From the IMG/VR virus record IMGVR_UViG_2061766007_000748: a DNA stretch of 64,000 nt. One strand, written 5' to 3'. The position numbers were made by a program, and so were the translations under genes. The notes under the pieces were generated by a model. It searched no databases and had not been told where the DNA came from. It saw only the letters and a program-made list of their open reading frames with translations. The stretch comes from an uncultured virus (IMG/VR IMGVR_UViG_2061766007_000748) (lineage: Duplodnaviria; Heunggongvirae; Uroviricota; Caudoviricetes). Below are positions 2,792 to 64,000 of this stretch, piece after piece. Position 1 is the stretch's first letter. Each line of letters begins with the position of its first letter.

Positions 2792-3604
2792 AATGAGAAA
2801 GCGAACACAACTAGCGGCAACTAACCTAAAAAAGATAATGAAGGAAAACGGTGTTGAATTAATTAAACAGTCTTATTATCCACCAGCCGACAGCATCATA
2901 TTGATATTTAGTTATACTGATAAGAATGTAGATAAGTTAGTAGAAAAGATTTCTCCACTTGCTAATTACAGGATAGAAAAAGGTAAAGAANNNNNNNNNN
3001 NNNNNNNNNNNNNNNNNNNNNNNNNAAAACAATGGAAGAAGAAAAAGTAACTCCTTGTAATTGGAAAGAAGTTAGTAACAATCCAGACTGGTTCTATGTT
3101 GGTTGCATAGACAGAAAGATAAACATTTGGAAACAATGTAAGAAGAAACACATCACACCAATTCAACTCTTTATGTCCTGCCCTTACTGTAAAGGTAAGG
3201 TTATTCTTGGAGAGAAGAAATGAGGATGTTCTATGAATGGCTTAATAAGATAGGATATACTGAAAATGAAATAAAGAAATTATCAAAACGTCATATTGAG
3301 ATTCTTATGGAAGAGTTCAGTATGTTACTAAAAGAGATGGGAGGAAATAAATGACGCCAGGTGAATTAAGGTGGAAGATAATTAAATTCTTTAATAACCA
3401 AGCACAGGTCTATATCACCAGTCCAACTAGAATGGAGGTTGATGTAAGTAAAGAAATAGACATAAGTGAATGGAAGAGATGTGCAGACACTTTGGGTTTT
3501 ACAGATAACAGTAAATCATTACCAAATTCATATAGGTATGATAATATAATCATAATGTTCTTTTACGGACCATTACAGAAATTCAATCAGAGGAATAAAA
3601 ACAA

Positions 3605-4048
3605 TTGGAGTATTTCACGACGACCCAGCTCTCAGAGCGATATAGACGGGATAACAGTACAATCGTCAACATCCTTAAAAGCGGAGGAATAGAAGCTGTA
3701 GGGGAAGGCGAACATAACGTAAAGTTATGGGGTGAGAATGCCGACATATATCTTTCAAAGTATGTAGTAAGCGAAACTGCGACATCAGCCAATAAATACG
3801 CTAAGGAACTTGGAGTACCGGCTAATGAGTTTAAGGTTATACTTAAATCACTTGGTATACATAACTTTCAGAGGGTAAGACGGAGTATGAAGGTAATGAA
3901 TGCCGNNNNNNNNNNNNNNNNNNNNNNNNCATTACCACTGGAAGAAATGAAACTCCTTCATCCGCTTGTTACTGATGAAAGATGTTTTCAGTTTAATTAT
4001 TGGCCAGATACAGAACCGATATGTTTCAAGGACTTGGATAATGACTGA
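3605..4048 (+). CDS. Putative HTH DNA-binding protein
   Basis: 'YFTTTQLSERYRRDNSTIVNIL' and 'SANKYAKELGV' resemble helix-turn-helix motifs; the gene spans a gap. Confidence 0.4.
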   Translation: MEYFTTTQLSERYRRDNSTIVNILKSGGIEAVGEGEHNVKLWGENADIYLSKYVVSETATSANKYAKELGVPANEFKVILKSLGIHNFQRVRRSMKVMNAXXXXXXXXXLPLEEMKLLHPLVTDERCFQFNYWPDTEPICFKDLDND

Positions 4049-18994: not shown

Positions 18995-19258
18995 ATGGAT
19001 TTTGGAAAGATGGCTGAGGTAGCACTTGCAACTGTTGGTGTTACGGAACTGATTAAGAATTTTGTTGGTAAGGGTGGAAAGAAGGTCTGGAGCCTTGTTA
19101 CTATTCTTGTTGGAAGCGGAATGAGTGCATTGAGTATATTCTGTCCTGAAGTAATCCTTCAATGTATTGTAGGTGTAAGTGGTGCAGTCGTATTCTATGA
19201 CACTATCTTTAAGGCATTTCAGAAACTGTTTGCCAAGATAGGAAATAAGGAGGAATAG
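18995..19258 (+). CDS. Holin
   Basis: 87 aa with 2-3 hydrophobic helices, directly after the endolysin. Confidence 0.7.
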   Translation: MDFGKMAEVALATVGVTELIKNFVGKGGKKVWSLVTILVGSGMSALSIFCPEVILQCIVGVSGAVVFYDTIFKAFQKLFAKIGNKEE

Positions 19259-19578: not shown

Positions 19579-20549
19579 NNNNNNNNNNNNNNNNNNNNNN
19601 NNNNNNNNNNNNNNNNNNNNNNNNNNNNNNNNNNNNNNNNNNNNNNNNNNNNNNNNNNNNNNNNNNNNNNNNNNNNNNNNNNNNNNNNNNNNNNNNNNNN
19701 NNNNNNNNNNNNNNNNNNNNNNNNNNNNNNNNNNNNNNNNNNNNNNNNNNNNNNNNNNNNNNNNNNNNNNNNNNNNNNNNNNNNNNNNNNNNNNNNNNNN
19801 NNNNNNNNNNNNNNNNNNNNNNNNNNNNNNNNNNNNNNNNNNNNNNNNNNNNNNNNNNNNNNNNNNNNNNNNNNNNNNNTCTCAGATTGAAGATAGTATT
19901 AAGGATTTAAGAACTGTAGTTTTAGAAACAAAACTTCAGGAGAGAGATATTAAAGATTTAACCGAACAGCAGACGGAACTGTTACAGGCTATAAATGCAC
20001 ACGATGCCCGCCTTAAAACTTTAGAACAAAAACCGATAAAAGATAGAGCAGATAAATGGCAGTACATAATGGACTATATATTTAAGACAGCAGTTGCAGN
20101 NNNNNNNNNNNNNNNNNNNNNNNNNNNNNNNNNNNNNNNNNNNNNNNNNNNNNNNNNNNNAATAATATTATGATAACATTTAACGAATGTGATTTTGATT
20201 ATGTTGAAGAATTTGATTTAAGTAGTATAGATAACTATGGTTATGTAGACTTCTGGAAAGGTGACGATATAATCAGAGTTTACATAGATGAGTTTGATGT
20301 TGACAGTCAGTATGATTCAAGACCAGACAGTTTTAATCCTGAAAGTGGTAATGTAGGTTACAGTTCTTATTCATATGATACTGTAAATGATATTGGTGTA
20401 TATACGGAACTGACTGATAGTGATGGAAATATTCATACTAAAGAACAGTTCCTTGAAAACAATCCTGAAATATATGATTTAGATTCAATCATAAAACAGG
20501 CAGAAGAGTTTGCCAAGAAACTGTTCAGACAGTGGTGGGAAGATCAGAA

Positions 20550-47357: not shown

Positions 47358-48794
47358 ATGGCAGATTTAAGAATAATTGGTCTTAATGGAGAAATTGAAG
47401 TATATCCATTATTCTCAGGAACAGCTAATGGTGTTATTGCGGCTACTATAAATAGTTCTAATTATTACCTGAAAACTTGTACTATTAATGTTGGAACTTT
47501 ACAGGCTACAACAGATGGTGGTACGGCTTCTTTTGAGAAGACCAGAACCTGTACCACCTGTAATTCCTGTGATTTATGTTATAACGTGACTGATTCTTGT
47601 AGAACTTGTGAAACGTGCGAATCACAATGTAATTCAACCTGCCAAAGTTGTAATATAGGATGTGATACAACCTGTAATGATAGATGTTATGATTGTCAGA
47701 GTTGTAATACAGGATGTGATACAACCTGTAACAGCAGATGTTATAACTGTAATTCTTGTAATAAACAATGCCAAGGCTGTGTTAACTGTAACGGAAATTG
47801 TAATACTGCTTGTTATAGTGATAATAGTGGGTGTTCAGTTTGCCAAGGATGCACAACCTGTGATGGAAGTTGTAACGGAAGTTGTTTTGGAAGTTGTAAT
47901 TTGACTTGTCAAGGAACTAATACAACCTGTAGCGGTAATTGTAATGAATGTCAAGTCTGCAACTCTGAACAAAATTGTGCCAAGGTTTGCTATAGTCATG
48001 TGCAAACCAAGTGTTCTTCTGGTTGCTATGATAAATGTGTTGGTCAATGTTATGTTAGTTATTATATATGTAATTCAGGTCAAGGATCCTGTTCAACGAA
48101 TTGTTATACATCTTGTATCGACTGTTATAATTATTGTCATGGAAATTATTGTTCAGGTGGTCATCAAGGTTGTCAAAACGGATGTAAAAACGGTAGTTGT
48201 ACTCCTTGCTATGGTTCTTATAGTATATGCTCCTCAGGTGAGGGTTGTGTAGATGGAACATCTTGTGCTTGTAACGGTTACGGAGGGGCAGGTTGTTATG
48301 GTGATAATGCCTGTTCAGGTGGTTGCCAATCATGTGCATCAATATGTTACGGAAAGTGCCAAACAGGAAGTTATACCGTTACTTGTTCAGCTTGTAACAG
48401 CGGTTGTACAGCTTGTGACAGCAATTGTTACGGTAAATGTTATGTTTGTAATACAAGTTGTAATGGTACTTGTAATGGTACTTGTAATGCCGGTTGTACT
48501 AGTTGCGATGGAAGTTGTACAAGTTCATGTAATAGTACTTGTGACGGTTGCCAGGCTTATCACAATCAAGGATGTCAACAATGTTATAAATGCCAAAGTT
48601 ATGTTAATGCCTGTCGTCAATGTCATGACTGCCAACTTTGTAACGGAACTTGTCAGGGTTGTGTTGGTTGTCAGGCGGGAGATTGTGCAACCTGTTATGA
48701 GTGTAATTCTACCTGTTATAATTATTTTGCTACTAACGCTCAGATAGCGTGTGGTAATGCTACCACCTGGGGCTATCCTGGAATCACATCGTAA
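47358..48794 (+). CDS. Giant Cys-rich CxxC/CxxxC repeat protein; putative radical SAM substrate / adhesin
   Basis: 478 aa with 96 Cys by hand count; ~63-aa Cys-poor N-terminus; starts 4 nt after the fibre 2 stop. Confidence 0.8.
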   Translation: MADLRIIGLNGEIEVYPLFSGTANGVIAATINSSNYYLKTCTINVGTLQATTDGGTASFEKTRTCTTCNSCDLCYNVTDSCRTCETCESQCNSTCQSCNIGCDTTCNDRCYDCQSCNTGCDTTCNSRCYNCNSCNKQCQGCVNCNGNCNTACYSDNSGCSVCQGCTTCDGSCNGSCFGSCNLTCQGTNTTCSGNCNECQVCNSEQNCAKVCYSHVQTKCSSGCYDKCVGQCYVSYYICNSGQGSCSTNCYTSCIDCYNYCHGNYCSGGHQGCQNGCKNGSCTPCYGSYSICSSGEGCVDGTSCACNGYGGAGCYGDNACSGGCQSCASICYGKCQTGSYTVTCSACNSGCTACDSNCYGKCYVCNTSCNGTCNGTCNAGCTSCDGSCTSSCNSTCDGCQAYHNQGCQQCYKCQSYVNACRQCHDCQLCNGTCQGCVGCQAGDCATCYECNSTCYNYFATNAQIACGNATTWGYPGITS

Positions 48795-48830: not shown

Positions 48831-50093
48831 ATGAATGCTAACATATCATTAGTTTTATACGGAATAAAGAAATGTTCCGGTTCGTGCCTTTACTGTTCGG
48901 CTGCTTCAACAATGAAATATCGTTCTAAAAGTAATCATACATCATTTGTTTTTGATAAAAAGAAAACGAAAGAACGAATTCTTGAATTTTGTAAAGATGC
49001 TCTCGATAGAGCTAAACAAAATAATGAAGGTGTTGAGCTGAATGTAGATATATGGGGTGGGAATCCTGTAGAGAACATAGACCCTTTCAAACAGGCAGTA
49101 GATTTTATAGAAAACGAACTTAAAGAATTTAAGTTTATCACAATTCACACTAGTGGTAATGGTCTTGAACTTCAGGACAGAGACATTGTAGATTATCTTA
49201 TCAGTCATAATATTCATTACCAGTTATCACATGATGGACTTGGACAATGGATTCGTACCGGTGAAATAGATCCTCTTTATTGGGATAAGACAAAGGATAA
49301 TATAGCAGAACTTGCAAGAAAAGGAATCTTGGACTGGATAAACTGTACCCTTTCAGCTCGTAATCCTTCTTTCTTCAGGAACATTGAATTTTGGAATAAA
49401 TGGCGTGACGATTTTAGAATTGCTGATAAAGATATTACCATTAAACTTAATCACATTTATGACGGAACAAAACCAATCACTAAGAAATGGCTTGGTAAAG
49501 ATAATGAATTTATCAAGCATGGTGAGGAAGTGGGAGATTTGTGTTTCCACGGCACAACCTTACAAGAATATCTCCACGAGTTCAGGAAATTATCTTATAT
49601 CTGTATGACACCAGGCATTGAAAATAACATTACGTTCAAACCTTTTGTAAATTACATCAGAGGACAATATGACAGATTTAAGATAATGAAAACTGATGAA
49701 GATTGTGGAAGTTGTGTAGCCTTTCAGCGTGGACTTAAAAAAACTAACTTCGCAATTGATACTAAAGGTGAATATTGTCAGTGCAATCTCATTGATAGCA
49801 GCACTAAAGTTCAGAATCCTGGGGCTAAACAACCTGATTACTGTAAAGGTTGTAGATACGAAAAAATGCTTGAATGTAATAAATGTGGTTCAGAGAATTA
49901 TATGCCTAAATGTGAATATCATTACTGGTGGGCTGAAACATTGGAAGAAACTTGGCAGGTTATTCAACTTATGCAGCAATTACAAAACAATCAGAATAAT
50001 CAAATGAGAAATAATTTCTGTAACGGAGACGAATGCAATTGCAAAGATAAAAACCGGCAACCGGTATTCTGTGTAAAGGATTATATTTTCTAA
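48831..50093 (+). CDS. Radical SAM enzyme with SPASM/twitch-type Cys-rich C-terminus
   Basis: 'CSGSCLYC' (CxxxCxxC), 'IWGGNP', 'HTSGNG', 'LSHDG' and 'CGSC..AIDTKGEYCQC..YCKGC..ECNKC..KC'; AAGGAG RBS before ATG 48831. Confidence 0.9.
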   Translation: MNANISLVLYGIKKCSGSCLYCSAASTMKYRSKSNHTSFVFDKKKTKERILEFCKDALDRAKQNNEGVELNVDIWGGNPVENIDPFKQAVDFIENELKEFKFITIHTSGNGLELQDRDIVDYLISHNIHYQLSHDGLGQWIRTGEIDPLYWDKTKDNIAELARKGILDWINCTLSARNPSFFRNIEFWNKWRDDFRIADKDITIKLNHIYDGTKPITKKWLGKDNEFIKHGEEVGDLCFHGTTLQEYLHEFRKLSYICMTPGIENNITFKPFVNYIRGQYDRFKIMKTDEDCGSCVAFQRGLKKTNFAIDTKGEYCQCNLIDSSTKVQNPGAKQPDYCKGCRYEKMLECNKCGSENYMPKCEYHYWWAETLEETWQVIQLMQQLQNNQNNQMRNNFCNGDECNCKDKNRQPVFCVKDYIF

Positions 50094-50097
50094 ACAA

Positions 50098-50131
50098 AAA
50101 CCCTACTCAATTACGAGTAGGGTTTATTTTT
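50098..50131. terminator. Likely bidirectional terminator closing the fibre-rSAM unit
   Basis: aaaccctactc-aattac-gagtagggttt with flanking A and T tracts, between convergent genes. Confidence 0.8.
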
Positions 50132-50384
50132 GAACCGAACAAGAAATTATTTTGCCTTATATCCNNNNNNNNNNNNNNNNNNNNNNNNNNNNNNNNNNNN
50201 NNTTTAAGTTGTGAAACCTTAATGTTGTTATCCACAGTTGCAATTCTTCCTATGATTTCTGTATCTTCAAAAACTGTTATGTTCTTGCCGGCCAATGTCT
50301 GGTACTTTCTACCGTTCACCTTAGTAAATGATTTTCCCATAGTCTAAATCTCCTTTATAACCGTCATTATCTTAAAAAAACCGA

Positions 50385-50432
50385 GGGTCTAAAAGGCAAA
50401 TGGTGTAATTATACCAGATGCCTTAAAACCCC
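50385..50432. repeat. TAATTATAC-core hairpin element, copy 3
   Basis: gggt..aaggca..tggtgtaattatacca..tgcctt..accc, followed by gctgttttt. Confidence 0.75.
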
Positions 50433-50439
50433 GCTGTTT

Positions 50440-51253
50440 TTAAGCTGCTATAAGTATCTTTTGAGCTTTATTAAGCATTTGATACCCGTCCATAAAACCT
50501 ATCATCTTTGCTGTTGAAACAGGCTTCTTCTTTTTGTCGTTACTTACAAAATCAGCGACAGCATTGTAAAGGCCCCATTTTGTACCGCGGAAGTTCTGTA
50601 GGTCGTCTTTGTTCTTGTAAATATCTGCAATTGATTCAAGTACATATTTCTTCTGGTTTTCTGAGAAGTCAAACTTCTTAAAGAACTCGCGGAAGAATTT
50701 GTCTTCGTTTACTTTTTCAATAGCAAGTTTTTCTGCGTCTTCCTTGATACGGTCAATGTAGTTAAGTGAAAGTGAAAGTGAACTTTCTGCTTCCTTCTGC
50801 TTTTCTTGAAGATTACCAAGATGTGCTACTCGCCAAAGTCTTGTAGCACCCTGTTCTGCCAACTGTAAGGTGTTGTTACAGCAAACCCTCACATTGGTTA
50901 TTCCTGCGGTTAAACCAAATACACCGTTGTGACCGTTTGAAACAAACAAGTAATTTTCAACCTTGTCACCAACCAGGTTAGTTTCAGGAAGTCTTACAAG
51001 GAGGAATACACGAGCTCCGTTATAAAGGCTACCTGCTGTTTCGTAATGACATTCAACACCTTTAGCGTTCTTGATAATCGCATCTGTAAAGTCAAACAAG
51101 TCTTTGTTCTGATAAACCTGATACTTTTCCTTTACAACACCAAGAACTTCTTTTGTATCTGAACGAACATTAGCAAAGGTATTAGGAATCTCAATTCCAC
51201 CCTTTAGATAAACAGGCTGTTGAACTACATCCCAACCAAGGTTTGCAAGTTTA
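50440..51253 (-). CDS. DUF932-family phage/plasmid protein (5' end in gap)
   Basis: Frame extends upstream as 'ANLGWDVVQQPV..ANVRSDTKEVLGVV..YQVYQN'; also 'YETAGSL..G', 'SNGHNG', 'VRVCCNNTL' and 'GTKWGLYNAVADF'. Confidence 0.8.
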
Positions 51254-51536
51254 NNNNNNNNNNNNNNNNNNNNNNNNNNNNNNNNNNNNNNNNNNNNNNN
51301 NNNNNNNNNNNNNNNNNNNNNNNNNNNNNNNNNNNNNNNNNNNNNNNNNNNNNNNNNNNNNNNNNNNNNNNNNNNNNNNNNNNNNNNNNNNNNNNNNNNN
51401 NNNNNNNNNNNNNNNNNNNNNNNNNNNNNNNNNNNNNNNNNNNNNNNNNNNNNNNNNNNNNNNNNNNNNNNNNNNNNNNNNNNNNNNNNNNNNNNNNNNN
51501 NNNNNNNNNNNNNNNNNNNNNNNNNNNNNNNNNNNA

Positions 51537-52398
51537 CGGTAAAATTGAAAGTCAGGTATTTGCAAATTCTACAGCCTATAACAATGCCATTTCAAAAATA
51601 GAAGATACTAACTTCATTTTACTTGGTGATACTTATTACAATCTGAAATACATTTCAATTGTAAAACAGAATGGCAAGAATGTTACCTATATCTTTACTG
51701 GAAAAGATGTTGTAGATTTTGCCTATGGAACTGTAAAGGCAGCTGAAGATGTAATTGCTTTACTTAAAGATTCATTCCTTGAAATCGAAGGTAAATGGTA
51801 TAATGCGGAACAGTTGGTTGTTGCAAACAGTAATGAAGATTCCCTTATTGTTACTTACAATTTTGGTGGAGAACAGTTGAATGTTCAGTATGCTAATTCT
51901 ACAGACTTTGAGGACGCTGTTGAAAAGGTTGAGGAAGTTAATGGTAGTGGTAGTGGAGACGTAGATATTGAAAACAACAAAGCTGCTACAATTGATGTTT
52001 CTGAGTATACTGATCCGGTTGTGGTTACACCGTCTAAGGGTAAAGACGGAATGAAGAAAGCAACTGTTACGTTGAGCAACATTCCAGGTGGAGGAGGAGT
52101 ATACTATTTGTATACTGCTCAAGACGAAACTCTTATAGTAGAAGAGCCCCTAAGTGCTGATGGAGGAACTCTTACTGGAACCTATATTGATAATGTAACT
52201 GGTACACCTACAACCAAAGAGTACAAAAATGCTACTTATTCTTGGGCTGAAGGGGAGTGCCAGAGTATTTGTTTATTTATTGGTAATGATTCTACTAAAA
52301 TATCACCAAAGAGTCCAGATCCTATTGTTGCGCCTGACTACACAGTAATTTACCTNNNNNNNNNNNNNNNNNNNNNNNNNNNNNNNNNNNACCATTGA
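51537..52398 (+). CDS. Virion protein paralogous to 38297 (5' end in gap)
   Basis: Same N-terminal repeat style ('FILLGDTYYN', 'FLEIEGKWYNA', 'YANSTDFEDAVE') but a different C-terminus. Confidence 0.6.
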
Positions 52399-53063
52399 TA
52401 ACCATATTTGATTTCTACGATTACAGTTCAAATCCAATAGTTCAGTACTGCTTATCACAATATAAAGATAAGCAGGTACTGACATTGGACGACTGTATGG
52501 CAGACATAATGAAACTTAGACACTCTCGTTTCTGTTATGNNNNNNNNNNNNNNNNNNNNNNNTTATACTACGCTACACAATCAGATGATTTTATTTATGT
52601 AGATGCTGACTCACTGGTTGAAAATATTCAAGACCTAAAAATGAATATGACTTGTCGTTCTTCTTTTGGTTTCAATGAAGGTAGTTATTTTAGAGCAAAT
52701 AAAGATACAGACTGGTGTCAGTTTTATGTTAATGTTTATGAAACAGATTTAGAAATAGGAGATAATCCTACTGCAACCGTTTACAGAAAACATCCTTTTA
52801 CTGTTCCACTTCAAGATTTGAACTATACTCATTTTTATGTGAGTATCTTTAACAGGTTTCCAAAGGTTGATAAAATACTTTATACAGACGACTACAATAA
52901 GGCTAATGAATTAAGACAGCCTGTATGGTGTTTTGATGTTAGACCTGGATTTATAACTAACGGCAGAATTTTTCATACTACTCATAAACTACCGTTTGAA
53001 GTATTTAAGGAACAGTTAATGTATTCACAACAGAATTCTAATCTGAAGTTCGAGGAGATTTGA
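52395..53063 (+). CDS. Putative GT-A glycosyltransferase
   Basis: 'DFIYVDADS' DxD motif; coupled to a nucleotide-sugar dehydrogenase. Confidence 0.5.
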   Translation: MITIFDFYDYSSNPIVQYCLSQYKDKQVLTLDDCMADIMKLRHSRFCYXXXXXXXXLYYATQSDDFIYVDADSLVENIQDLKMNMTCRSSFGFNEGSYFRANKDTDWCQFYVNVYETDLEIGDNPTATVYRKHPFTVPLQDLNYTHFYVSIFNRFPKVDKILYTDDYNKANELRQPVWCFDVRPGFITNGRIFHTTHKLPFEVFKEQLMYSQQNSNLKFEEI

Positions 53064-53064
53064 G

Positions 53065-53844
53065 ATGTTTGAACAGGAACAGATTCTAGAGAATCCTACG
53101 GTATTGATATGTGGCTATGGTATAGTAGGTAAGAATATTAAAAAGGATTTTCCTTTTGCACATACTTACGATGTTTATGTTAAAGCTTTTCCCGATTACA
53201 CTACTCCTCCTGATACTACATACGATATTGCTTTTATTTCTGTTCCTACACCCTTAAAAGATAACAGATGTGATATAACCTATGTTAAACAGGTTCTTTC
53301 TACAGTCAAGGCAAACATCTATGTTATTAAGTCTACTATTCCACCTGAAACCACAAATCATTTAAAAACCGAATTTCAGAAAAGAATTGTCTTCTCACCC
53401 GAATATACTGGAATCACTCATTCTTCCAATGCCGGTAATTTTGTAATATTGGGTGGAGAAAATGAAGATGTTCATATTATCAGACAACTTTATGAACAGG
53501 TAAAAGGACCAGAATTATATATCTACCAGTGTTCCAGTACTGAAGCAGAAATCATTAAATATATGGAAAACTGTTTCCTTGGACTAAAGGTGGTATTTTG
53601 TAATCAGTTCAAGGATATTGCAGNNNNNNNNNNNNNNNNNNNNNNNNNNNNNNNNNNAGGATTTATTTTAGATAAACGAGTCGGAAAATCACATACCCTG
53701 GTTTATGACAAATATAGGGGATATGACAGCAAATGTCTGAATAAGGATATTCCTGCCTTTATTACAGAAGTAAAAGAAAGGGGAATGGATTCTTTTATTA
53801 TGGAATCTGTAAACGAAATAAATAACAAGATCAAAGCACGTTAA
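53065..53844 (+). CDS. UDP-glucose/GDP-mannose dehydrogenase family protein
   Basis: 'ICGYGIVG', 'FISVPTP', 'IKSTIPP', 'FSPEY', 'AEIIKYMEN' and 'GYDSKCLNKD'. Confidence 0.85.
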   Translation: MFEQEQILENPTVLICGYGIVGKNIKKDFPFAHTYDVYVKAFPDYTTPPDTTYDIAFISVPTPLKDNRCDITYVKQVLSTVKANIYVIKSTIPPETTNHLKTEFQKRIVFSPEYTGITHSSNAGNFVILGGENEDVHIIRQLYEQVKGPELYIYQCSSTEAEIIKYMENCFLGLKVVFCNQFKDIAXXXXXXXXXXXXGFILDKRVGKSHTLVYDKYRGYDSKCLNKDIPAFITEVKERGMDSFIMESVNEINNKIKAR

Positions 53845-54034
53845 TNNNNNNNNNNNNNNNNNNNNNNNNNNNNNNNTTAATTGCATGATTAAACTGTTTT
53901 TCTGAAATCTCATAAGCCGCACAGGCACTCATTGTATCTTTGAATACTTCAGCTGTTTTTGATTTAAGGTTATTAATTTCGTTAGGGTTATCTTCGTCAA
54001 GGTAAATTGTAATTTTAATTTTCATAATTTCTCC

Positions 54035-54949
54035 TTATTGAATATTTAATTCTTTTTTTATCATATCAACCTCTTCATAAGTTAATTCTCCCGGATCATT
54101 CTTTCCAAATGGTTCACAGATGTTTACTACTTCTACTTCCATTCCGGTTGAGGATAAATTCATTCCAAGATGTTTAGCTTTCTCCTGAGCCTCATATTCA
54201 TTATCAAAACAGATAAATATCTTTTTGTATCTTTCTTTTAAGAATAATTCTTGTTCGTGGGTTACGGTAGTACCAAGTGAACAGATACAGTTATTTCCAA
54301 CGCGAATGACATCAAATGCACCCTCAACCAACATAACGTAATCTTGTGTACTGTTATCAAGATTAAAAAAAATATCTTTTGCTGCAATTACAGACTGTTC
54401 AATAGACAAGTTTTTGTATCGTGGAATATTAAGTCTTTTAATCTCTTCTTTACTTAAAATAGAACGACCAGTCCAACTTACCAAAACCTTTTTGTAATAA
54501 ATTGGAATAAGGATTCTGTAAGACCAATCACCGGCAATTCCACCACCTCTGATATGAAACTTATCTTGAAGATAATTTACATCATAACCTCTATTTATTA
54601 AATACTGTTTTTCCTGTTCATTTAAGTGATAACCGGGTAAATCAAGATATTGAGCTTTTGCTGTTCTTTTTGTTTCTTTTTCAGGTGCAATATATTTATA
54701 GTCTTGTATAAATTTAGAAACTTGATTAAACGGAATATTTAAGATTTTCTCAAGTGCGTCATACCAGCTGTGACCACCACATCTCCAACAACTGNNNNNN
54801 NNNNNNNNNNNNNNNNNNNNNNNNNNATTAAAATGAGTATCTGGTGGGTCAGAACAGAACGGACAATTTACATTAACCCAAAATTTATTTACATCTGTTC
54901 TAACAGGAATATGAGCATTATCAAATATGCGTTTGAAATCAATTGCCAT
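54035..54949 (-). CDS. DNA primase (zinc finger + TOPRIM)
   Basis: 'CPFC..H..CWRC', 'LVEGAFDV', 'CFDNE' and 'KNDPGE'; start re-placed at 'MAIDF'. Confidence 0.85.
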   Translation of the reverse strand: MAIDFKRIFDNAHIPVRTDVNKFWVNVNCPFCSDPPDTHFNXXXXXXXXXXXSCWRCGGHSWYDALEKILNIPFNQVSKFIQDYKYIAPEKETKRTAKAQYLDLPGYHLNEQEKQYLINRGYDVNYLQDKFHIRGGGIAGDWSYRILIPIYYKKVLVSWTGRSILSKEEIKRLNIPRYKNLSIEQSVIAAKDIFFNLDNSTQDYVMLVEGAFDVIRVGNNCICSLGTTVTHEQELFLKERYKKIFICFDNEYEAQEKAKHLGMNLSSTGMEVEVVNICEPFGKNDPGELTYEEVDMIKKELNIQ

Positions 54950-55490
54950 ATTTACANNNNNNNNNNNNNNNNNNNNNNNNNNNNNNNNNNNNNNNNNNNN
55001 NNNNNNAAGTTCTTCATCAAAATATGCTCTTACAATAGCTTCAAGTATCATTTTATCAGCTATATTGTCTTCAATATCTTTATAACAAGAATCTACACCA
55101 TAATGACCACCTGAAATAAAACCAATTNNNNNNNNNNNNNNNNNNNNNNNNNNNNNNNNNNNNNTTCCTCATGATTTAATTCATAAATAATAATCGGAAC
55201 AATATCCTGGTTTTCGTAAGGCATGGCTCTGATTGTATTGTAATCAAGCCATTCAAAAGCGTCATTGTAAAAGTCAGGCTCACATCCAGGACTATCACAA
55301 TCGTTATGTTCTTTATCGTTCCATTCTTTTTCGTAATCTTCTGCAAGTGCCGCAGCAAGTGTATAATAACCATAAATAATATGTTTTTTATCTTCACTTA
55401 CTCCAAGAATACCTTTATTGAAAACTTCTTCTGGTTCTAAAAACAATACTGGTTCTTCAATTCCAAACCGTTCACAGATTTCCTGTTTTG

Positions 55491-55964
55491 TCATATATTA
55501 CCTCCTATAATTTTAAGAACTTTCTGTCTCTGTTCTTCTATTTGTTCAGGTGTTGCAAGTTTACCACCTGGTATCATAACGTCAAGAAAATCACCAATAT
55601 CAAATATTTCACCTTCTGATAAAACATTCAAAGCATAAGCATTATTTAATGTAAAATTGATAATTTGATTAATATCCTTCTGATTTAATTCTGATTTAGT
55701 TTTATCATATGTATCTTCTACTAATTCACNNNNNNNNNNNNNNNNNNNNNNNNAAAATTGTTTTTGGACTGTATCTGCATGATTTATCTGAAACTTAATC
55801 CTTTTACCATGTCCACCTTTAAGATATTCTTTACCTTCATCTACCCATATATTTACAGGTAATCCACTTCTTTTCTTACGAATATTTGCCATAGAATAAA
55901 TCCATGAACATTCTTCAGTAACATTATCTATTTCATTATCTATTTCATTATCAATAAGTTCCAT
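55491..55964 (-). CDS. Hypothetical protein, possibly DUF4160/toxin-like
   Basis: 'MANIRKKRSGLPVNIWVDEG...HGKRIKFQ'; short IDNE repeat at the N-terminus; AGGAGG RBS. Confidence 0.45.
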   Translation of the reverse strand: MELIDNEIDNEIDNVTEECSWIYSMANIRKKRSGLPVNIWVDEGKEYLKGGHGKRIKFQINHADTVQKQFXXXXXXXXXELVEDTYDKTKSELNQKDINQIINFTLNNAYALNVLSEGEIFDIGDFLDVMIPGGKLATPEQIEEQRQKVLKIIGGNI

Positions 55965-55980
55965 AATCTAATTCCTCCTT

Positions 55981-56120
55981 AAAATAAAAACCCCTTTATG
56001 AAAGTGTCTGGTGGTTTGCCAAGATTGTCCAATGCGAATAAAACAATCATAAACACTTTCACAAAAGGGTTTTAATTATCTCTCGCATTGTCTATCTTAT
56101 CCACAGTCACCAACTAAGGA
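55981..56120 (-). ncRNA. Structured 5' leader with competing terminator/antiterminator folds
   Basis: 21-bp stem (55987-56007 with 56053-56073) plus U tract; the upstream segment pairs with the loop. Confidence 0.65.
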
Positions 56121-56127
56121 CAATTAG

Positions 56128-56156
56128 ATTATAATATAACCACTTCTGTTTGTAAA
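56128..56156 (-). promoter_or_regulatory. Sigma70-like promoter
   Basis: Minus strand TTTACA-17nt-TATAAT. Confidence 0.8.
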
Positions 56157-56954
56157 GTATAATTTATTCTTCCTTCTCAGATAAAAACTTAAACAGTTCT
56201 TCAGCTTCCCATTTTACTTCACCGGGAAGTCCTTTACTTCTTTGAGTAAGTTCGTCACCATAGTGCATATAATCATCACCAATTTTAATGCTGTCACCAT
56301 TATTCTTAACATAAGTAATACCACAGTGCGTTCTAAAAGGAAAGTTATTCATAGCACCGTCATAATCGTCGTCTGTAAGATGGCACAGGTTCTTATAAAG
56401 TGGATGGTTTTTATAAATTATGGCATAAACATTCCAACACTCATTACCCATAAACCCACATAATTCATTAGCCTTCTCTTCATCATCTATCATATGCCAA
56501 TGAACGATTTCTACTTCAAAATTATTCCCTTTGTTTACACAATTCTCAAGAAAAATATTCCTTGGGTTTTCTTTTAGTTTCATTTCAAAATTCATTTATC
56601 ACCTCCTAAAATAAAGGGTTCATTGCAACCGTAGTATACATTTCGTCTACCTTTACATCCAAGTTTTCTTCTGTTCTAATTTTAGGTGCTTCCTTGTTCA
56701 CTTCCCTTAAAGTATCAATAATAACCTTGTCCGGTTCCTGTATAAGTTCAATTGTAAACTTGTTATTCAGATAACCCCAGCATACATTCCATAATGACTG
56801 GCTGTCATTTTTAATGCCGCACTTTTNNNNNNNNNNNNNNNNNNNNNNNNNNNNNNNNNNNNNNNNNNTCCACTCATTCTCATATGATTTTACTCCTTAT
56901 ACCTTAATAATAGAATTACTATGATTTTCACAGATTTATTATATATTTTTTAGT

Positions 56955-57626
56955 ATGAATGGAACTGTGAATAATAAAATAGAATCTACTCTAGCCAAAT
57001 NNNNNNNNNNNNNNNNNNNNNNNNNNNNNNNNNNNNNNNTAAATTAGTTCCTGTAATAAAACCTCATTGTAGACAAAATTCTGTAGAAGATATTTACCAG
57101 CATCTTTTTCTTTGTCCTGCTAATTTATCCAAGAAAAGAAACTTTCAACTTCAAGGTGTATTAAGTCCATTTATTTGTCTATGGAGAACTTCACCTATTA
57201 ACTGGAATAAAGAATGGTATGGAAGAAGCGTTTTGAATAGAGATTTTTATTACACGGATAAAGAAGGTATAACACAATGTGAACAGGGATTTTTGTACGA
57301 TGTAGAAATTGAATTTGAACTGTTTTCGTCTTCATACTATAAATCATTCCGGGATAGAGTAAACCAAAATCTTATTGATATGGATAGGCTGAGGTATTTT
57401 GATGTTTCCGTTACAGAATTATTAACCAACTGTTCCGATATGAAAACCAGAGCAGAATTTATGCTTACAGGAATGCAGGCTACAGATAATCTGGATAATG
57501 AACAGAATAATAGAAGTTTTGACCTTAATGCTAAATATAAGGTAAAGATGTCTATTCCTTACTGTAGAAGCTTTGATTATATTGAAAATGTTCAAATATA
57601 TCTTAATGATAATAAAATATACGAAA
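56955..57626 (+). CDS. Putative tail-completion/neck protein (gapped)
   Basis: Late-type motif directly upstream; lies before the sheath. Confidence 0.35.
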
Positions 57627-57979
57627 NNNNNNNNNNNNNNNNNNNNNNNNNNNNNNNNNNNNNNNNNNNNNNNNNNNNNNNNNNNNNNNNNNNNNNNNNN
57701 NNNNNNNNNNNNNNNNNNNNNNNNNNNNNNNNNNNNNNNNNNNNNNNNNNNNNNNNNNNNNNNNNNNNNNNNNNNNNNNNNNNNNNNNNNNNNNNNNNNN
57801 NNNNNNNNNNNNNNNNNNNNNNNNNNNNNNNNNNNNNNNNNNNNNNNNNNNNNNNNNNNNNNNNNNNNNNNNNNNNNNNNNNNNNNNNNNNNNNNNNNNN
57901 NNNNNNNNNAGGATAGAATATTAAATCTGTTACCAAGGAAATATTCTAACTAGATTTATATATTTTTTAAGGAGAAAAT

Positions 57980-58988
57980 ATGTCCGTTTACAATTATGGC
58001 GACCAAAAGATAGGATGGNNNNNNNNNNNNNNNNNNNNNNNNNNNNNNNNNNNNNNNNNNNNGATTTAGTCAGCCAGGACTTGTTACAAGACCGGCTATG
58101 ATTATAACTACAACTGAAACAGGTGCTAATGTAACGATACGCCCGTTTTCTCTTTTAATTCAACCTTCTGATATGAAAACAGATGTTACAGATGAAAACG
58201 GCAATAATATCATTGTCAGACTTGCTAAGGTAACAACAGAAAGTAATGTAACCGTTCCAATTGACGAAAATACCCGTGCTATTGGATTCAGGTATATGTT
58301 TAAGCAAGCCTCACAAGCGACAGGACAATCAGAATGGTATGGTGATTTCGTAGCCTTAGACACTGATACTATCAGAGGGTCTAATCCTTTTGAAGGTATC
58401 ATTATTGCAACCTGTATGTGTAATATAAACAATGATACTTCCGATAAATATTTTTCTGTAACCACAAGTGGAGCTGATATAAGTGATTTACTTCTTAAAG
58501 AAGAAGGATGGAATCCTAATTGCTGGGTAAGTCTTGTTTCACCAAGACGGGCAGCATTATCAAATGATAAGATAGCTTATACTAAATTAGAATTAAGAAA
58601 CCATAACAGTTCATTTGCATCTTATATAAACAGTACATCAGGTGTTACTTATATATATGCTCCTACCTATACATTTATGAATAACGGAGATGTTACGGGT
58701 ATTTATGAAAGTGGTGTTATATATCATACAGTAAGTGATACTAAAACACCATTTATTCAGAATGGGATCTGTTTCAATAGTAATGGCTTAACCTGTACTG
58801 ATTATGGTAACAGTATACCATTATCTAATACACAGGGTGGAATATTAGCAATAGCAGAAAGTGTTCACAGTGGTTCAACCTGTACTGATACACTTGCAGA
58901 ATCATTTGCTAACCGGATTAAATTGTATCCTTGTATCAAAGAACAATTAAACATATATGTATCAGATAATACATTATATATCAAATAA
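57980..58988 (+). CDS. Putative baseplate/fibre-attachment structural protein (joined across gap)
   Basis: Late-type motif and AAGGAG before ATG 57980; beta-rich; precedes the sheath. Confidence 0.4.
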
Positions 58989-58999
58989 GGAGTATTCAT

Positions 59000-60785
59000 A
59001 TGGATAAAGAAAGTGGAGTATACATTGAAATAAATGATAATACGTTTGAAACACCTGGCGTATCAAGTATGAAGGTACTAGTACCAATGTGTACAACCAA
59101 AGGTGAACTTGGACTAAATCTTGTTGACGCAAATAATTTCAAAGACATTCTTGGTTATGATTTGGACTATAACTCTAATTATTATGGTTTGAATCTAATG
59201 CTTGAGAATTTGTCTTATGCTTATGTATGGCGATTGAATCAGGACGCTAAACTTGCTAATGCTTATTTCACAAACACTTCTACAGCTAAAGGTAGTAATG
59301 CTAATGCAACAACATTCAGTGATATTACAGGTTCTACACCAAAACTTGCAGTGGCATTAAAAAACCCAGGAAACCCTCAGACAATTGCTGTTAAGTTTGA
59401 ACCAACTTATATTGTTACTACAGAACCAAATAATAATCCAACCACTACTACAACACAAGAAATTGTATTAACAAACGTTTCTTCTAGTGAAAGTAAAACA
59501 TTTAATGGTGAAACAATTAAAGGTGGTTGTATATTCTATGATGCTTTAGGTACAAGTGTTGTAGGTATTATTAAAGCTAATGCCGCTAGTGCATTAAAGG
59601 TATATCGAGTTGTAGATAATATAATTATTGATGACGTATCTGAAGGTACAACCGTTGTTACAGATAATTCTTGTGGAAGTGCTTCTTGGAGTTCAAATAC
59701 ACTTACCGTTACTCTTACTGCACCTCTTTCTAAAGAATCATATTATACTGTAAAAACAATTCCACCTACTATTACAGAATGGACTTTAATTTGTGCTTCT
59801 TATGACGGAAATACTCATAGTGAGATGAGTAGAAATAATTTTAGTACGAACTCATTCTCAGATATTTATTGGAAAAATGTTGCTTTTAAGAACATTGATT
59901 TGTACCTTAAAACTGAAAGTGGAACAGGAACAGAAAACATACCTAGTAACTGGACTGCTATTCGCGATTATTTCCAACTTGAAAATGGTTCAAATGGTGT
60001 TGCTGTAGATTCTATTATTGCTGCAAACATCGATACCACACCAATCGATAAAGCTCATTGTAATGTAATTGCAATGAATGGTATTACTGATTCTGCTGTG
60101 ATTAATAGAATTGCTCAGAAAGCAGAAAAATCATTCACTCACACTTTTGCTGATGCACCTGCAGAATCATCATATACGAATATTTATAACTGGAGGGAAA
60201 ATCTTTACAGTAGTGAATATTTAGCCATTGGTGCAAGACCAGATCAGGTTAAAATATCAGCAACCAAATCTATCTATGTATATCCTTCTGTAAACTATGT
60301 CTTGATTCTTTCAAGAATGCAAGACCAGTATCACTCACTTAATTATCCGCCAGCCGGTTTTACATACGGNNNNNNNNNNNNNNNNNNNNNNNNNNNNNNN
60401 NNNNNNNNNNNNNNNNNNNNNNNNNNNNNNNNNNNNNNNNNNNNNNNNNNNNNNNNNNNNNNNNNNNNNNNNNNNNNNNNNNNNNNNNNNNNNNNNNNNN
60501 NNNNCTCCTGTATTTATTATGGACGGACTTCGTGAACAGTTACAGAGTTTTGAGGAACAGTTCAATTTCCGATATATGTCGCCAACAGACCTTCTTAATC
60601 AGGAATCAGGAATCAAATCTATTCTTGATAGTTATGTTACACAAGGTTTTATTTTCAGATATGAACTTAATGTTCCAACTTATTCAGAAGCACAGGAAGC
60701 AGGTCGTACACTGGTTATCACAATTGGTGTTTCTATTGCTAAAGATAGTGAGGTTATCTATATCAATATTAATTTGAATAACTAA
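59000..60785 (+). CDS. Contractile tail sheath protein (joined across gap)
   Basis: 'SGVYIEIND', 'YAYVWRL', 'FADAP', 'YPPAGFTYG' and a sheath-type C-terminus 'QFNF..IKSILDSY..RTLVITIGV..SEVIYINI'. Confidence 0.85.
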
Positions 60786-61223
60786 GAGNNNNNNNNNNNN
60801 NNNNNNNNNNNNNNNNNNNNNNNNNNNNNNNNNNNNNNNNNNNNNNNNNNNNNNNNNNNNNNNNNNNNNNNNNNNNNNNNNNNNNNNNNNNNNNNNNNNN
60901 NNNNNNNNNNNNNNNNNNNNNNNNNNNNNNNNNNNNNNNNNNNNNNNNNNNNNNNNNNNNNNNNNNNNNNNNNNNNNNNNNNNNNNNNNNNNNNNNNNNN
61001 NNNNNNNNNNNNNNNNNNNNNNNNNNNNNNNNNNNNNNNNNNNNNNNNNNNNNNNNNNNNNNNNNNNNNNNNNNNNNNNNNNNNNNNNNNNNNNNNNNNN
61101 NNNNNNNNNNNNNNNNNNNNNNNNNNNNNNNNNNNNNNNNNNNNNNNNNNNNNNNNNNNNNNNNNNNNNNNNNNNNNNNNNNNNNNNNNNNNNNNNNNNN
61201 NNNNNNNNNNNNNNNNNNNNNNN

Positions 61224-61514
61224 GAACCTATGTGGTGTTATGATTTCTTTATGGCACTTAAAGACCTTACAGGAAATGAAGAAAATCAGGCATCTGTATA
61301 TGGTGTTCAGTCTAAATTCAATATAGGTATTGCAAAGATTTCTGTAGATAAGAAAACGATTACCGCATACAGACGTCTTGTTGGATGTCGTGTTTATGAT
61401 GTAGTACCAGGTGACGGATTAGAAAAAGAAGGGGAAGGAACTTCTTCTGTTAAGGTTAATATGGGTTGGGATAGAAACGTAGAAGATAAGACTATGCGTG
61501 GTAAAGAAGTCTAA
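61224..61514 (+). CDS. Tail tube protein (3' part; 5' in gap)
   Basis: Follows the sheath; 'AYRRLVGCRVYDV...VKVNMGWD' is a tube-like ending. Confidence 0.5.
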   Translation, partial: EPMWCYDFFMALKDLTGNEENQASVYGVQSKFNIGIAKISVDKKTITAYRRLVGCRVYDVVPGDGLEKEGEGTSSVKVNMGWDRNVEDKTMRGKEV

Positions 61515-61527
61515 GGAGCGTTGATGT

Positions 61528-62249
61528 ATGCGTCCTGAGACTTTACCTTTAATTTCTGACTACAAGAAAGAATACAAGTTTCTCTGGTTAATTGAGATTA
61601 ACGAAACCCGTGACAGCCAAGTTATGGATAGAGTTGGCATAGACGGTATGAAATTCTTTAACAATGTGGTTTCAGATANNNNNNNNNNNNNNNNNNNNNN
61701 NCTGAAACTGTAAATCCTCCTGATGATGAATTTGAAATTGAAACCATTCCTCAAGGTCCTGTAGATTATCAAATGCCTAAGAAAGTAAAGTTAGATGATA
61801 TATCTGTTACTTATCTTGAGGACACCTTAGAATCAGTATACAATTTTCATAAGGCTTGGTATCAGGCTATACGATGTGGAAAGACCGTAGGTATTAACAG
61901 TCCTTATTTATTTTCAGCGTCTGCCAGATACATTCCTTTTGATGATACAATGCTTGCAACAGAATATATAGCATTCAAGAATCAATTTGTTCAGAATTTT
62001 AATTCTGCCGTTTCAAGTAACAGATTAATGCCTAGTTTACCATTAGGAGCAAAGGCGACATCAATTATCACTTATCCTAGAATCTATCCTAAAAAGATAC
62101 ACCGTTCAGCTGCTAATCATGGTGGTGAATCAGTTGCTACAGTAGATGTTACCTATGCCCGTATTCCTGAATTTAAGAAAAAGAATACCGCTTTACAGAT
62201 GTGGGACGGTTATACCTGGCATAATACTTCTAACGGTAAAATGGTATAA
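61528..62249 (+). CDS. Tube-like baseplate/tube initiator protein (gp54/gp48-like; joined across gap)
   Basis: 'MPKKVKLDDISVTYLED..VYNFHKAW..YPRIYP..VDVTY'. Confidence 0.55.
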
Positions 62250-62294
62250 ATCTTAATATCTTTATTCTAACATTATATTAAGAGGTACCCGTTT

Positions 62295-62875
62295 ATGAGA
62301 AAGAATATTAAATTACCTGCTCCTCAATTATCACAACTTAAAGAAGTAAATCTTGATTTGGATATGACAGGAAGACACTATTCTTTATTGGCTTNNNNNN
62401 NNNNNNNNNNNNNNNNNNNNNNNNNTCAATTCTTAAAGACTTGATGGAAGAAGATGCTAATAAACTTACATTGGCAGAACTCAGGTATTTATTTATGTTA
62501 GTTAAAATCAACAGTCTTGAGAATGAGTATATTGTAAACGTTACTTGCTCCCATAAAAATAAGAATGGTGAAGAATGTGGTCACGTTAATGAAGTTAAGA
62601 TATTCCTCTCAGATGCAGATCTTAATCCAACACCATCAAATTATACACCACCAAAAATAAAATTCAGAACAAAAGATACGGAAAAAGAATATACTGTTAT
62701 GCCGTCTACAATGAATAAAGAAAGTCAGTTATACAATTATTTCCTTGTAGAACGTGGTGAAAATCNNNNNNNNNNTTCTTTCGGCGTTCAAAATAAAGTA
62801 TATGAAATTGAATGTAAGGAGTGTGGTGGAAGAATTATCTTCCAGTTACCCTTACTCAATGGACTTGTTGATTGA
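62295..62875 (+). CDS. Baseplate hub assembly protein, gp26-like (gapped)
   Basis: 'LTLAELRYLFMLVKINS..VTC..ECGH' and C-terminal 'ECKECG'. Confidence 0.6.
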
Positions 62876-63100
62876 CAGGAAAAACCGTTCATTAGAAAAC
62901 TTCTATAAGGATGTCTTAATACCTTTATCATTTTATAATCTCGGTTCTGTTAATGATTTACTTAATATGAAACAGTACGAACTCAAACAGTTACGGTCTT
63001 GTCTTAAAGATAAATCAATCATAAAATTACATTATGACATCATAGGTATACCGCTTAAACAGGACTAAACTGTTTTATATATTTTTAATAGAGGTTACAG

Positions 63101-64000
63101 ATGGCTACATACTCTCGTTCAGATTCAAGTTCTCAAACGGCAACAGCAACTCAGGTTTTACCAAGTAAAGATTTAAGTTCTGTTATTGTTAAATCATTGG
63201 AAAATATCGTAAAAGAAAACAATGATGGTAAGAATGAACAGGAAACCATTACAGATGCTATTAACAATTCTAATCTTAACAGTTTACTTGAAAAGAAAGA
63301 AAAAGATACTAATACGAAACAACTTGAGAATCTTCTTGTAAAATCACCTTCTGTAAATAAAATGCTTACCCAAACATTAAGTCAGAATATTGGTAAAGTA
63401 NNNNNNNNNNNNNNNNNNNNNNNNNNNNNNNNNNNNNNNNNNNNAGTGGTGCTATAGGTGGATTACAGAAAGCTGTTCATACACCACTTAAAACAATCGT
63501 TACGAAACTGGCATTAGGTGCAGCAATTGGAAGTCAAATATTTGTATTTCTGGAAGGAGCTTTAGCTAAGTTTCTTAGCGAAAAAGATTTACGGACAATT
63601 AATNNNNNNNNNNNNNNNNNNNNNNNNNNNNNNNNNNNNNNNNNNNNNNNNNNNNNNNNTGAACAAGTTCTTTCTAAAGTAACCATCATGGGAAAACCTA
63701 TCTATGGTTCTTTAACTAATGAAGAAAAAGACCAATTAAAAGAACTTGAAAAAGATAAGAATGTTCTTGCCTATAAAGCCGCTACCTATTACACGAAACA
63801 AACAGATAAAGAAATATTCAGGGAAGGTCAAAGGGTTGGTATTCACAATAAGGATGATTATGATCTTAATACTGAAGAAGGAAGATTAAAATTCAGATAT
63901 GATTATCTTGAAAAAATATCAAATATGTATTCGGGTGAAGAACGTGATAATATGATTTATTCTGAAGCCAGAAGAATAGACCAGTTGTACGAACAAAGAA
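63101..64000 (+). CDS. Putative tape-measure protein (partial, gapped)
   Basis: Long helical/coiled-coil ORF after the baseplate genes; late-type motif upstream; runs off the window. Confidence 0.5.

Follow-up and report, generated by a model that had tools for sequence, protein, structure and literature searches.

The 64,000-nucleotide (nt) stretch of DNA analysed here, the whole of which we call the window, comes from an uncultured rumen phage (IMG/VR record IMGVR_UViG_2061766007_000748) and carries on its minus strand an untranslated leader ahead of a gene for a protein of 157 amino acids (aa). This leader is a conserved, uncatalogued RNA, and we propose, as a reading that we regard as evenly poised between right and wrong, that it works as a promoter-proximal transcription terminator/antiterminator attenuator, yielding an RNA of ~140 nt plus a read-through mRNA. 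The window has a G+C content of 33.6% and 4,033 masked bases in 76 runs; PHROG matches to portal, tail, baseplate and primase proteins identify it as a tailed phage, and near-identical contigs of the leader stretch are present in sequencing runs whose records name bovine and sheep gut metagenomes. On the minus strand, the block around the leader consists, in this order, of a 143-aa open reading frame (ORF), a gap of 199 nt, the 157-aa ORF, a 133-aa ORF and a Toprim/DnaG-type primase.

Anatomy of the leader RNA

All features of the leader lie on the minus strand. A sigma-70-like promoter occupies 56156-56128, with TTTACA at -35 (56156-56151), a 17-nt spacer and TATAAT at -10 (56133-56128). Scoring 11/12, it is the best of the 64 promoter-like sites in 50000-64000, a total for 14 kb that does not rise above that of shuffled sequences (54.2 +/- 6.0). 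Its extended form, CTTTACAAA-N(12-16)-TANAAT, occurs a single time in the window where 0.02 is expected. The CTTTACAAA promoter motif also precedes homologous genes at five of the loci described below (L016, L015, L017, L019 and L020), but in L019 and L020 it is followed by a short leader without a hairpin. Judging from the spacing, transcription would start at G56121, 7 nt past the -10 hexamer.

From there, the RNA is predicted to fold into a 5' hairpin, P1 (56121-56099; 4 + 5 pairs), whose apical part holds segment A1, UUGGUG (56113-56108). A linker of 25 nt, which contains segment A2 (CAAUGCGA plus G; 56090-56082), separates P1 from a long terminator stem, T. The arms of stem T (56073-56053 and 56007-55987) form 21 bp including two G.U pairs and enclose 45 nt; the minimum free energy (MFE) fold adds two pairs, giving 23 bp around 41 nt, and lets the stem close a three-way junction with two sub-hairpins. 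The first of these, Pa (56048-56023), has 8 bp and a 10-nt loop (loop a, 56040-56031) to which A2 is complementary, its exact partner UCGCAUUG (56037-56030) lying in loop a and the first base of the Pa 3' strand. The second belongs to the Pb region (56021-56008), which is made up of a small UGG/CCA hairpin and the A1 partner CACCAG (56013-56008). After the 3' arm comes the U tract UUUUUAUUUU (55990-55981), of which the first four U close the stem and which is the predicted 3' end of a short RNA; the Shine-Dalgarno (SD) sequence of the 157-aa gene, AAGGAGG (55980-55974), directly abuts it. The consensus promoter, the leader of about 140 nt, the 21-bp stem with two G-U pairs, the U tract and the ribosome-binding site (RBS) reported in a preliminary description of this locus, made from the letters alone, are all in the sequence.

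As in an intrinsic terminator, the sequence offers a stem of 21-23 bp with CCC/GGG(G) near its base, followed by UUUUUAUUUU; a simple terminator scan does not list the hairpin, since it allows loops of 3-8 nt only. The two G.U pairs are mismatches on the plus strand and make the predicted structure strand-specific; two matches to the arm pattern were found, against 0.01 expected. Counted from G56121 to the U tract, the RNA is 141 nt long and has a folding energy of -44.2 kcal/mol (z -4.96), which none of 200 shuffles attains; the RBS of the 157-aa gene, beyond it, is predicted to be free. A look-up of sequencing runs that contain 55754-56826 listed no RNA run. Contigs from four further DNA runs show little or no change in the leader: in one contig of run X6, the G at 56121 is replaced by A, still a purine, by which the first P1 pair turns from G.U to A-U, and the same contig has a single change in the linker and a U tract longer by one U.

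We considered a leader peptide and rejected it. The leader holds no conserved small ORF; those in its loop have no SD and are shifted in frame from one close relative to the next, and the leader RNA reads as non-coding. The Infernal search against Rfam that the preliminary description had proposed was run over the whole window with the covariance models of Rfam 15 and returned no match at the gathering score, C4, IsrK, guanidine-IV and T-box included. Restricted to 55800-56400 and with E up to 10, it gave eight matches, all far below gathering, the best being a miRNA model on the plus strand (23.2 bits against a gathering score of 90). The leader RNA has no repeats in the window.

Conservation in two lineages

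The 157-aa protein has 13 homologues in a large protein collection, none of them named. Using a homologue alignment, we gathered 49 loci (11 viral and 38 metagenomic) and folded the 220 nt upstream of each, which, with nine duplicates and one too short a region set aside, amounts to 39 distinct regions. Three of these, the metagenomic relatives L016, L015 and L017, have the same leader design. In L016 the protein is 72% identical and the leader 87% identical over 151 nt; in L015 and L017, with proteins 46-47% identical, the architecture of the leader is kept while its letters are unrelated. A covariance model built from the window and L016 only finds both of the latter over their full length, L015 with 38.1 bits (E 5.6e-06) and L017 with 36 bits (E 1.7e-05), and no other right-strand match at E < 0.1 in 46 sources (eight duplicate loci excluded). 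All four leaders fold alike, into P1, a linker and a long stem that closes a junction with two sub-hairpins, with z between -4.96 and -6.21 and, for each, none of 200 shuffles as good.

Between the window and L016, 26 of 144 columns differ, and the 13 differences that fall on predicted pairs all leave them paired. Stem T has four single changes (A-U to G.U, C-G to U.G, G.U to A-U and U.G to U-A), and Pa in L016 has gained one base on each strand, adding a U.G pair. Within the helix of A2 and loop a, three pairs have double changes and a fourth has a change in one strand, and 8/8 remain paired; each of the three substitutions in loop a of L016 is matched at its exact partner, whereas shifting the partner by 1-3 columns leaves only 36-50% paired. 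L015 and L017 reach the same arrangement in other letters. Their P1, in the same place, is a 6-bp hairpin with a 9-nt loop, the complement of which (7 bp) is held by a 4-bp hairpin with an 8-nt loop at the Pb position, and a segment of their linker is complementary to the Pa loop over 7-8 bp; the corresponding duplexes, at -22.2 and -22.7 kcal/mol, are reached by 1 and 2 of 500 shuffles. On the covariance-model alignment of all four sequences, the 22 pairs of stem T are 100% paired, with eight changed on both sides and five on one, and 96.3% of all cells are paired against 81.4% in shuffles (0/500 reach it), in an alignment that is fitted to the structure and whose four rows represent two lineages.

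P1 invites a different explanation. All 23 of its nucleotides are identical in L016 while 13 of the 25 columns of the adjoining linker have changed, and in both lineages, at a protein identity of 46-47% between them, the leader has been passed down along with the 157-aa gene. Both would fit control by a phage or host protein, be it an N/Q-like antiterminator or the basic product of the 157-aa gene itself, that binds the leader with P1 as its recognition hairpin. We consider this quite unlikely, as the sequence and loop of P1 differ in L015 and L017, most homologues of the 157-aa protein come without the leader, and that protein shows no family or fold recognisable as RNA-binding; that P1 does not vary has an equally good explanation in the invariance of its pairing partner, CACCAG being unchanged in L016 as well.

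The unrelated letters of the two lineages also bear on a riboswitch, which had been among the possibilities first put forward and in which a small ligand would stabilise the loop contacts and prevent termination. The architecture does resemble the one proposed for the guanidine-IV riboswitch of mepA, where the loop of an upstream hairpin is complementary to the terminator loop, and their kissing is proposed to favour read-through (PMC11611296). An upstream hairpin loop complementary to the terminator loop region is likewise found in the rumen leader. However, the riboswitch as described there depends on its ligand and has conserved loop nucleotides, whereas the rumen leader has two contacts, with letters that vary by lineage, and a terminator that is a three-way junction. 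Since the pairing segments and interacting loops are unrelated in letters between the two lineages, with no conserved pocket visible, Rfam gives no match, and the downstream genes are those of replication rather than a transporter, a metabolic enzyme or another ligand-related context, a riboswitch is very improbable, although two lineages would leave room for a small conserved pocket elsewhere in the leader.

Further searches added no leader. An exact 21-mer of the arm has no match in viral contigs, a two-anchor leader pattern has none in viral or in genome contigs, and neither megablast of 53800-57200 against plasmids and phages nor a tblastn search with the 157-aa protein over 50,697 phage records gave a match; scanning genome contigs with the alignment of the 157-aa family produced 194 pattern matches and no relative. 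Seven of the protein homologues (P0004-P0010) are 70-93% identical to the 157-aa protein, and seven further leaders are likely to be found ahead of their genes. In four loci of a different, higher-GC phage group (L006, L007, L025 and L040), a promoter-like motif, GTTTAGA-N17-TATATT, stands before the homologue, partly inside a hairpin.

Competing folds and the proposed attenuator

According to the preliminary description, three segments of the 5' leader are complementary, in nested order, to sequences inside the terminator loop. All three complementarities are present, and they have fared differently in evolution: CAAUGCGA/UCGCAUUG is backed by the compensatory changes described above; UGGUG/CACCA is invariant in L016 and swapped for another complementary pair in L015 and L017; AAGAU/AUCUU, with 3/5 pairs remaining in L016, is not kept. 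When the RNA of the window is cut before the 3' arm, leaving its first 114 nt, the MFE fold joins the 5' segments to what will become the loop, and the terminator's 5' arm is closed in between them. The same pairing of 5' segment and loop appears in the truncated transcripts of all four leaders (-32.5, -24.6, -22.5 and -23.0 kcal/mol), and in all four the full-length RNA switches to the terminator (-44.2 to -48.5 kcal/mol). As such, an alternative fold that excludes the terminator and is able to form first is present, in silico, in 4/4 leaders, and the idea of a terminator-like hairpin with a competing fold of 5' segment and loop holds in four instances of a conserved non-coding leader.

From these folds, the following course of events may be proposed. 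Transcription would start near G56121, and in the first 114 nt the top of P1, and above all A2, would pair with sequences of the future inner loop of the terminator, so that in this antiterminator state the 5' arm is shut inside a structure of 5' leader and loop. The emerging 3' arm (56007-55987) would then displace the antiterminator and build the stem of 21-23 bp ahead of the U tract. If the stem forms in time, the polymerase would stop at about 55981-55986 and release the ~140-nt RNA; the remaining polymerases would continue into the 157-aa gene, the 133-aa gene and the primase. With the promoter on the upstream side of the hairpin and the RBS abutting the U tract, the three downstream genes would be reached only by read-through. 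The leader would in this way set, and possibly modulate, the output of the 157-aa/133-aa/primase operon. We infer that some transcripts end at the hairpin while others run past it, and that the choice depends on the alternative pairing; the two folds may form in turn, and the read-through ratio may be fixed. The arrangement would be distinguished by an antiterminator whose 3' strand falls, in the modelled folds, inside the terminator's own loop.

Several points weigh against this attenuator. As to the evidence from relatives, the four leaders come down to two independent lineages, each a near-identical pair: homologous leaders have been collected and the pairing is kept, with three double changes in L016, but the covariation that was to be looked for extends over two lineages only, and a shuffle control with two sequences is powerless (71/500). 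A degenerate 3'-arm pattern scanned over IMG/VR gave 32 loci, with a 77-nt hairpin in L064 (E 0.0015) among its products, and a degenerate 5'-arm pattern gave 5; in either case, the model re-found only the L015 contig as a family member. As to energies, the duplex of the 5' segment with the apical loop region (-28.1 kcal/mol by RNAduplex; 2/500 shuffles reach it) is matched by duplexes of -28 to -32 kcal/mol that the loop finds by chance elsewhere in the 64-kb window, so that conservation, not duplex energy, carries the argument. In addition, the full-length MFE favours the terminator by 12-25 kcal/mol, and read-through would by these models hinge on folding kinetics. On the level of sequence, the contact of A2 and loop a may be regarded as proven by its compensatory changes, but the larger fold is not thereby fixed, as these compensations would fit an antiterminator helix just as well as a tertiary kissing contact formed alongside the terminator, and the paired insertion in Pa would favour a sub-hairpin that is part of the terminator fold. 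Two promoter-like sites scoring 9/12 lie within the leader (56103-56075 and 56075-46), the second of which, if used, could start transcripts downstream of the 5' arm. Finally, there is no recognisable sensor in the leader.

Some of these points would suit a terminator or insulator that acts constitutively and has a decorated loop. The hairpin would then end transcription from upstream genes and from the strong promoter, at a fixed and incomplete efficiency and with no switching, and the contacts of 5' segment and loop, tertiary in nature, would compact the apical region of 41-47 nt or protect the RNA. The terminator is the full-length MFE fold in 4/4 leaders, with both sub-hairpins formed and Pa backed by its paired insertion; kissing contacts of 6-8 bp are compatible with a closed stem; and, with no sensor to be recognised, there is also an upstream gene that, as read from its sequence, lacks a terminator of its own. 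Because the stop codon of that 143-aa gene sits 7 nt before the -35 hexamer, upstream transcripts also enter the leader. Yet a plain terminator needs neither a promoter upstream nor 5' segments whose complementarity to the loop is kept by three double substitutions, and the folds of the truncated transcripts set these segments against the 5' arm of the terminator. We therefore regard a constitutive terminator as rather unlikely.

A possible action in trans

The attenuator as proposed works in cis. Could the terminated RNA itself have a target? It could act in trans as a sense-strand RNA, in the manner of P4 CI or IsrK: the ~140-nt RNA would accumulate, pair by its exposed loops or its 5' segments with complementary segments of the same leader as it is being made, block the cis antiterminator and so enforce termination, providing dosage feedback or immunity on the replication operon, with the helix of A2 and loop a as a specificity determinant that differs between related phages. 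We consider this a possibility, though a doubtful one. One RNA carries both partners of two pairings, placed in hairpin loops in L015 and L017, and antisense RNAs display their recognition sites likewise in loops. The columns of A2 and loop a have changed more often than the others (7/16 vs 19/128; Fisher p 0.010) and always with compensation, as one would expect if the two formed a co-evolving specificity pair. Most of this enrichment, however, stems from the linker, which is generally variable (13/25 columns changed), and the loop side alone gives 3/8 vs 3/35 (p 0.067). No second target downstream, comparable to seqC of P4, was found: P4 CI and C4 have targets on both sides of the RNA, and for the rumen leader the upstream segments are present, but when the rest of the window is searched for complements of the apical region, the best ones include no downstream minus-strand site, being on the plus strand and at chance level. 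Nor does the leader match any Rfam family, C4 and IsrK included.

On the plus strand, GTTTGCCAAG, which is complementary to the stretch of the leader between Pa and Pb, has three extra exact copies, at 19228-19239, 20508-20517 and 47838-47847. The copy at 19228 extends to 12 nt and is followed, after ~10 nt, by an AAGGAGG similar to the RBS of the 157-aa gene. Chance would give one 12-mer complement in 64 kb, and we do not take the GTTTGCCAAG copies as targets.

The genes around the leader

The gene that constantly accompanies the leader, to judge by gene content, is the 157-aa gene (P0002; 55964-55491, minus strand; ATG at 55964; 24 bases masked), which belongs to a phage family with no assigned function, and not the primase. 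Its stop overlaps by 4 nt with the 133-aa gene (55494-55093, minus strand), also of no assigned function, after which comes the Toprim/DnaG-type primase, with a longest ORF at 54035..55051 on the same strand (Toprim_2, 8.6e-07; phrog_47, 9.4e-37). While the leader thus does stand before an operon that ends in a primase, as first described, the primase operon does not behave as a unit with it: in relative L002, the primase is 70% identical and the 133-aa protein has a homologue (L002 3278-3598; 61% identity), yet both the leader and the 157-aa gene are absent, and the 83-kb record of L002 holds no homologue of the 157-aa protein. Missing from L002 is a module of 1,085 bp (window 55509-56593) with the 143-aa gene, the leader and the 157-aa gene, the break relative to L002 3264-3276 falling exactly on gene boundaries; conversely, the primase of L002 is preceded by a 131-aa gene (3602-3997) of which the window has no counterpart. 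The longest primase ORF of the window has a 36-residue N-terminal extension (54943-55051), partly masked and common to no relative; its true start is probably Met37 at 54943, the alignments with relatives beginning at residue 35.

Downstream of its leader and homologous gene, L015 encodes a DnaB-like helicase and an SNF2 helicase, and together with the primase of the window this means that a replication-module context holds in both lineages. The gene upstream of the leader differs among the window, L016 and L015. In the window it is the 143-aa gene (P0001; 56595-56164, minus strand; TAA stop at 56166-56164), whose product has phrog_2164 (0.00038) as its sole PHROG match; a search for relatives with this gene gave one weak locus only, and no homologue of it is found beside the other three leaders (L016, L015 and L017). 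Adjoining homologues of the 157-aa gene are TnpB-like genes (OrfB_IS605 plus a Cas12f1-like TNB domain), at 507-1832 in L015 and at 1200-2411 and 3539-4771 in L020, where they lie on both sides of the homologue.

The 157-aa protein had been called toxin-like, and the leader possibly an RNA antitoxin to it. Nothing found supports this: the protein has no match in Pfam, PHROGs or PADLOC, and its AF2 model (pLDDT 83, pTM 0.80) finds nothing in the PDB at E <= 0.001 with Foldseek, the best Z of a wide VIA-align search being 3.1. A weak lead from a language model points to DUF4160 (0.83; 16% of one cluster). Invariant residues of the family include D, Y, K, K-F-Q and N-N-x-Y-A-L, and tandem second copies of the homologue occur in L005, L013/L014, L023, L024 and L027. 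The 5' end of the gene (55911-55957) contains a 12-nt repeat, GATAATGAAATA, which encodes IDNE repeats; close homologue P0004 has four residues fewer at this place, and in read mapping the GATAATGAAATA repeat draws many unrelated metagenomic contigs at high depth. Elsewhere in the window, at 50098-50125 between converging genes, a perfect hairpin of 11-12 bp with T tracts on both strands is likely to be a bidirectional terminator.

Discussion

Transcription attenuation is textbook knowledge, and short RNAs from 5' untranslated regions (UTRs) are on the map of a few cultured phages. A full-text literature search in a limited library found no paper that describes the leader element presented here, of which the rare aspect would be a phage leader with matched mutations and a competing partner inside the terminator's own loop. 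How, then, does it compare to what is known? Attenuation in replication-gene leaders is familiar from the plasmids pT181, pIP501 and pAMbeta1, in which the rep terminator is located just before the RBS and a 5' preemptor, pairing with the 5' arm of the terminator, prevents it from forming, under the control of an antisense RNA transcribed from the opposite strand. The rumen leader shares the setting before replication genes, the terminator before the RBS and a 5' segment that opposes the terminator. It differs in that the 5' segment pairs with the terminator loop, not the 5' arm, and in that it has no antisense promoter candidate: a simple scan of 55950-56120 found no plus-strand site scoring at least 9/12, which gives no support to the antisense control that the preliminary description had considered.

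The likeness to P4 CI and P1 C4 drawn there is a fair lead to how the leader may work. In satellite phage P4, the CI RNA derives from the leader of the replication operon and brings about premature termination by pairing with seqA and seqC (PMC4825925). Like CI (seqB), the structured RNA of the rumen phage lies in the untranslated leader of a replication/primase operon, on one transcript with an upstream complementary segment, and the outcome would be premature termination of transcription. Unlike the RNA of the rumen leader, that of P4 is processed, acts in trans in the lysogen and needs a downstream target, for which no counterpart was found in the window; moreover, the complement in the rumen leader sits in the terminator's own loop, and the effect of the pairing in silico is antitermination. 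The C4 RNA of P1 and P7 is reportedly related to this P4 CI immunity.

IsrK of the Gifsy-1 prophage provides a second precedent for an action in trans. There, one promoter gives rise to a short terminated RNA and a read-through mRNA, the leader takes alternative structures, and the short form of IsrK targets its own read-through isoform in trans (PMC4825925). One promoter, a short RNA ended by a terminator, a read-through mRNA and alternative leader structures would be common to both systems. From what is described there, however, IsrK governs translation in trans, while the RBS of the rumen leader is predicted to be free and its alternative folds concern the terminator.

Short terminated RNAs beside read-through mRNAs are common in phages, to judge by mapped terminators. 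In Pseudomonas phages, ONT-cappable-seq located 42 terminators in 5' UTRs, with short RNAs next to read-through mRNAs; as far as the excerpted text goes, these combine a phage promoter, a terminator within 250 nt, an abundant short RNA and some read-through mRNA (PMC10914365). Those terminators are known from transcript mapping, as reported there, whereas the rumen leader is known from conservation and covariation, and the same excerpt describes no conserved alternative pairing (PMC10914365).

Taken further, the leader might be a member of a wide, undescribed class of self-complementary terminator RNAs by which phages guard their replication genes, acting in trans in immunity or dosage control; we put this forward tentatively. 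As speculative is the corollary that the ~140-nt RNA would act on the nascent leaders of the same phage or of a co-infecting relative, and we hold with equal reserve that the fast, compensated divergence of A2 and loop a could be a specificity code, similar to the heteroimmunity of P1/P7 C4 but within an intrinsic terminator. If an action in trans were true, RNA immunity of the P4/P1 type would extend to unrelated phages of Gram-positive-like hosts.

If the attenuator is true, an uncultured rumen phage meters the operon of its replication module by RNA alone, through a compact part of ~140 nt with a specificity helix that is potentially re-programmable. The leader also links a widespread family of phage proteins without assigned function to the replication module.

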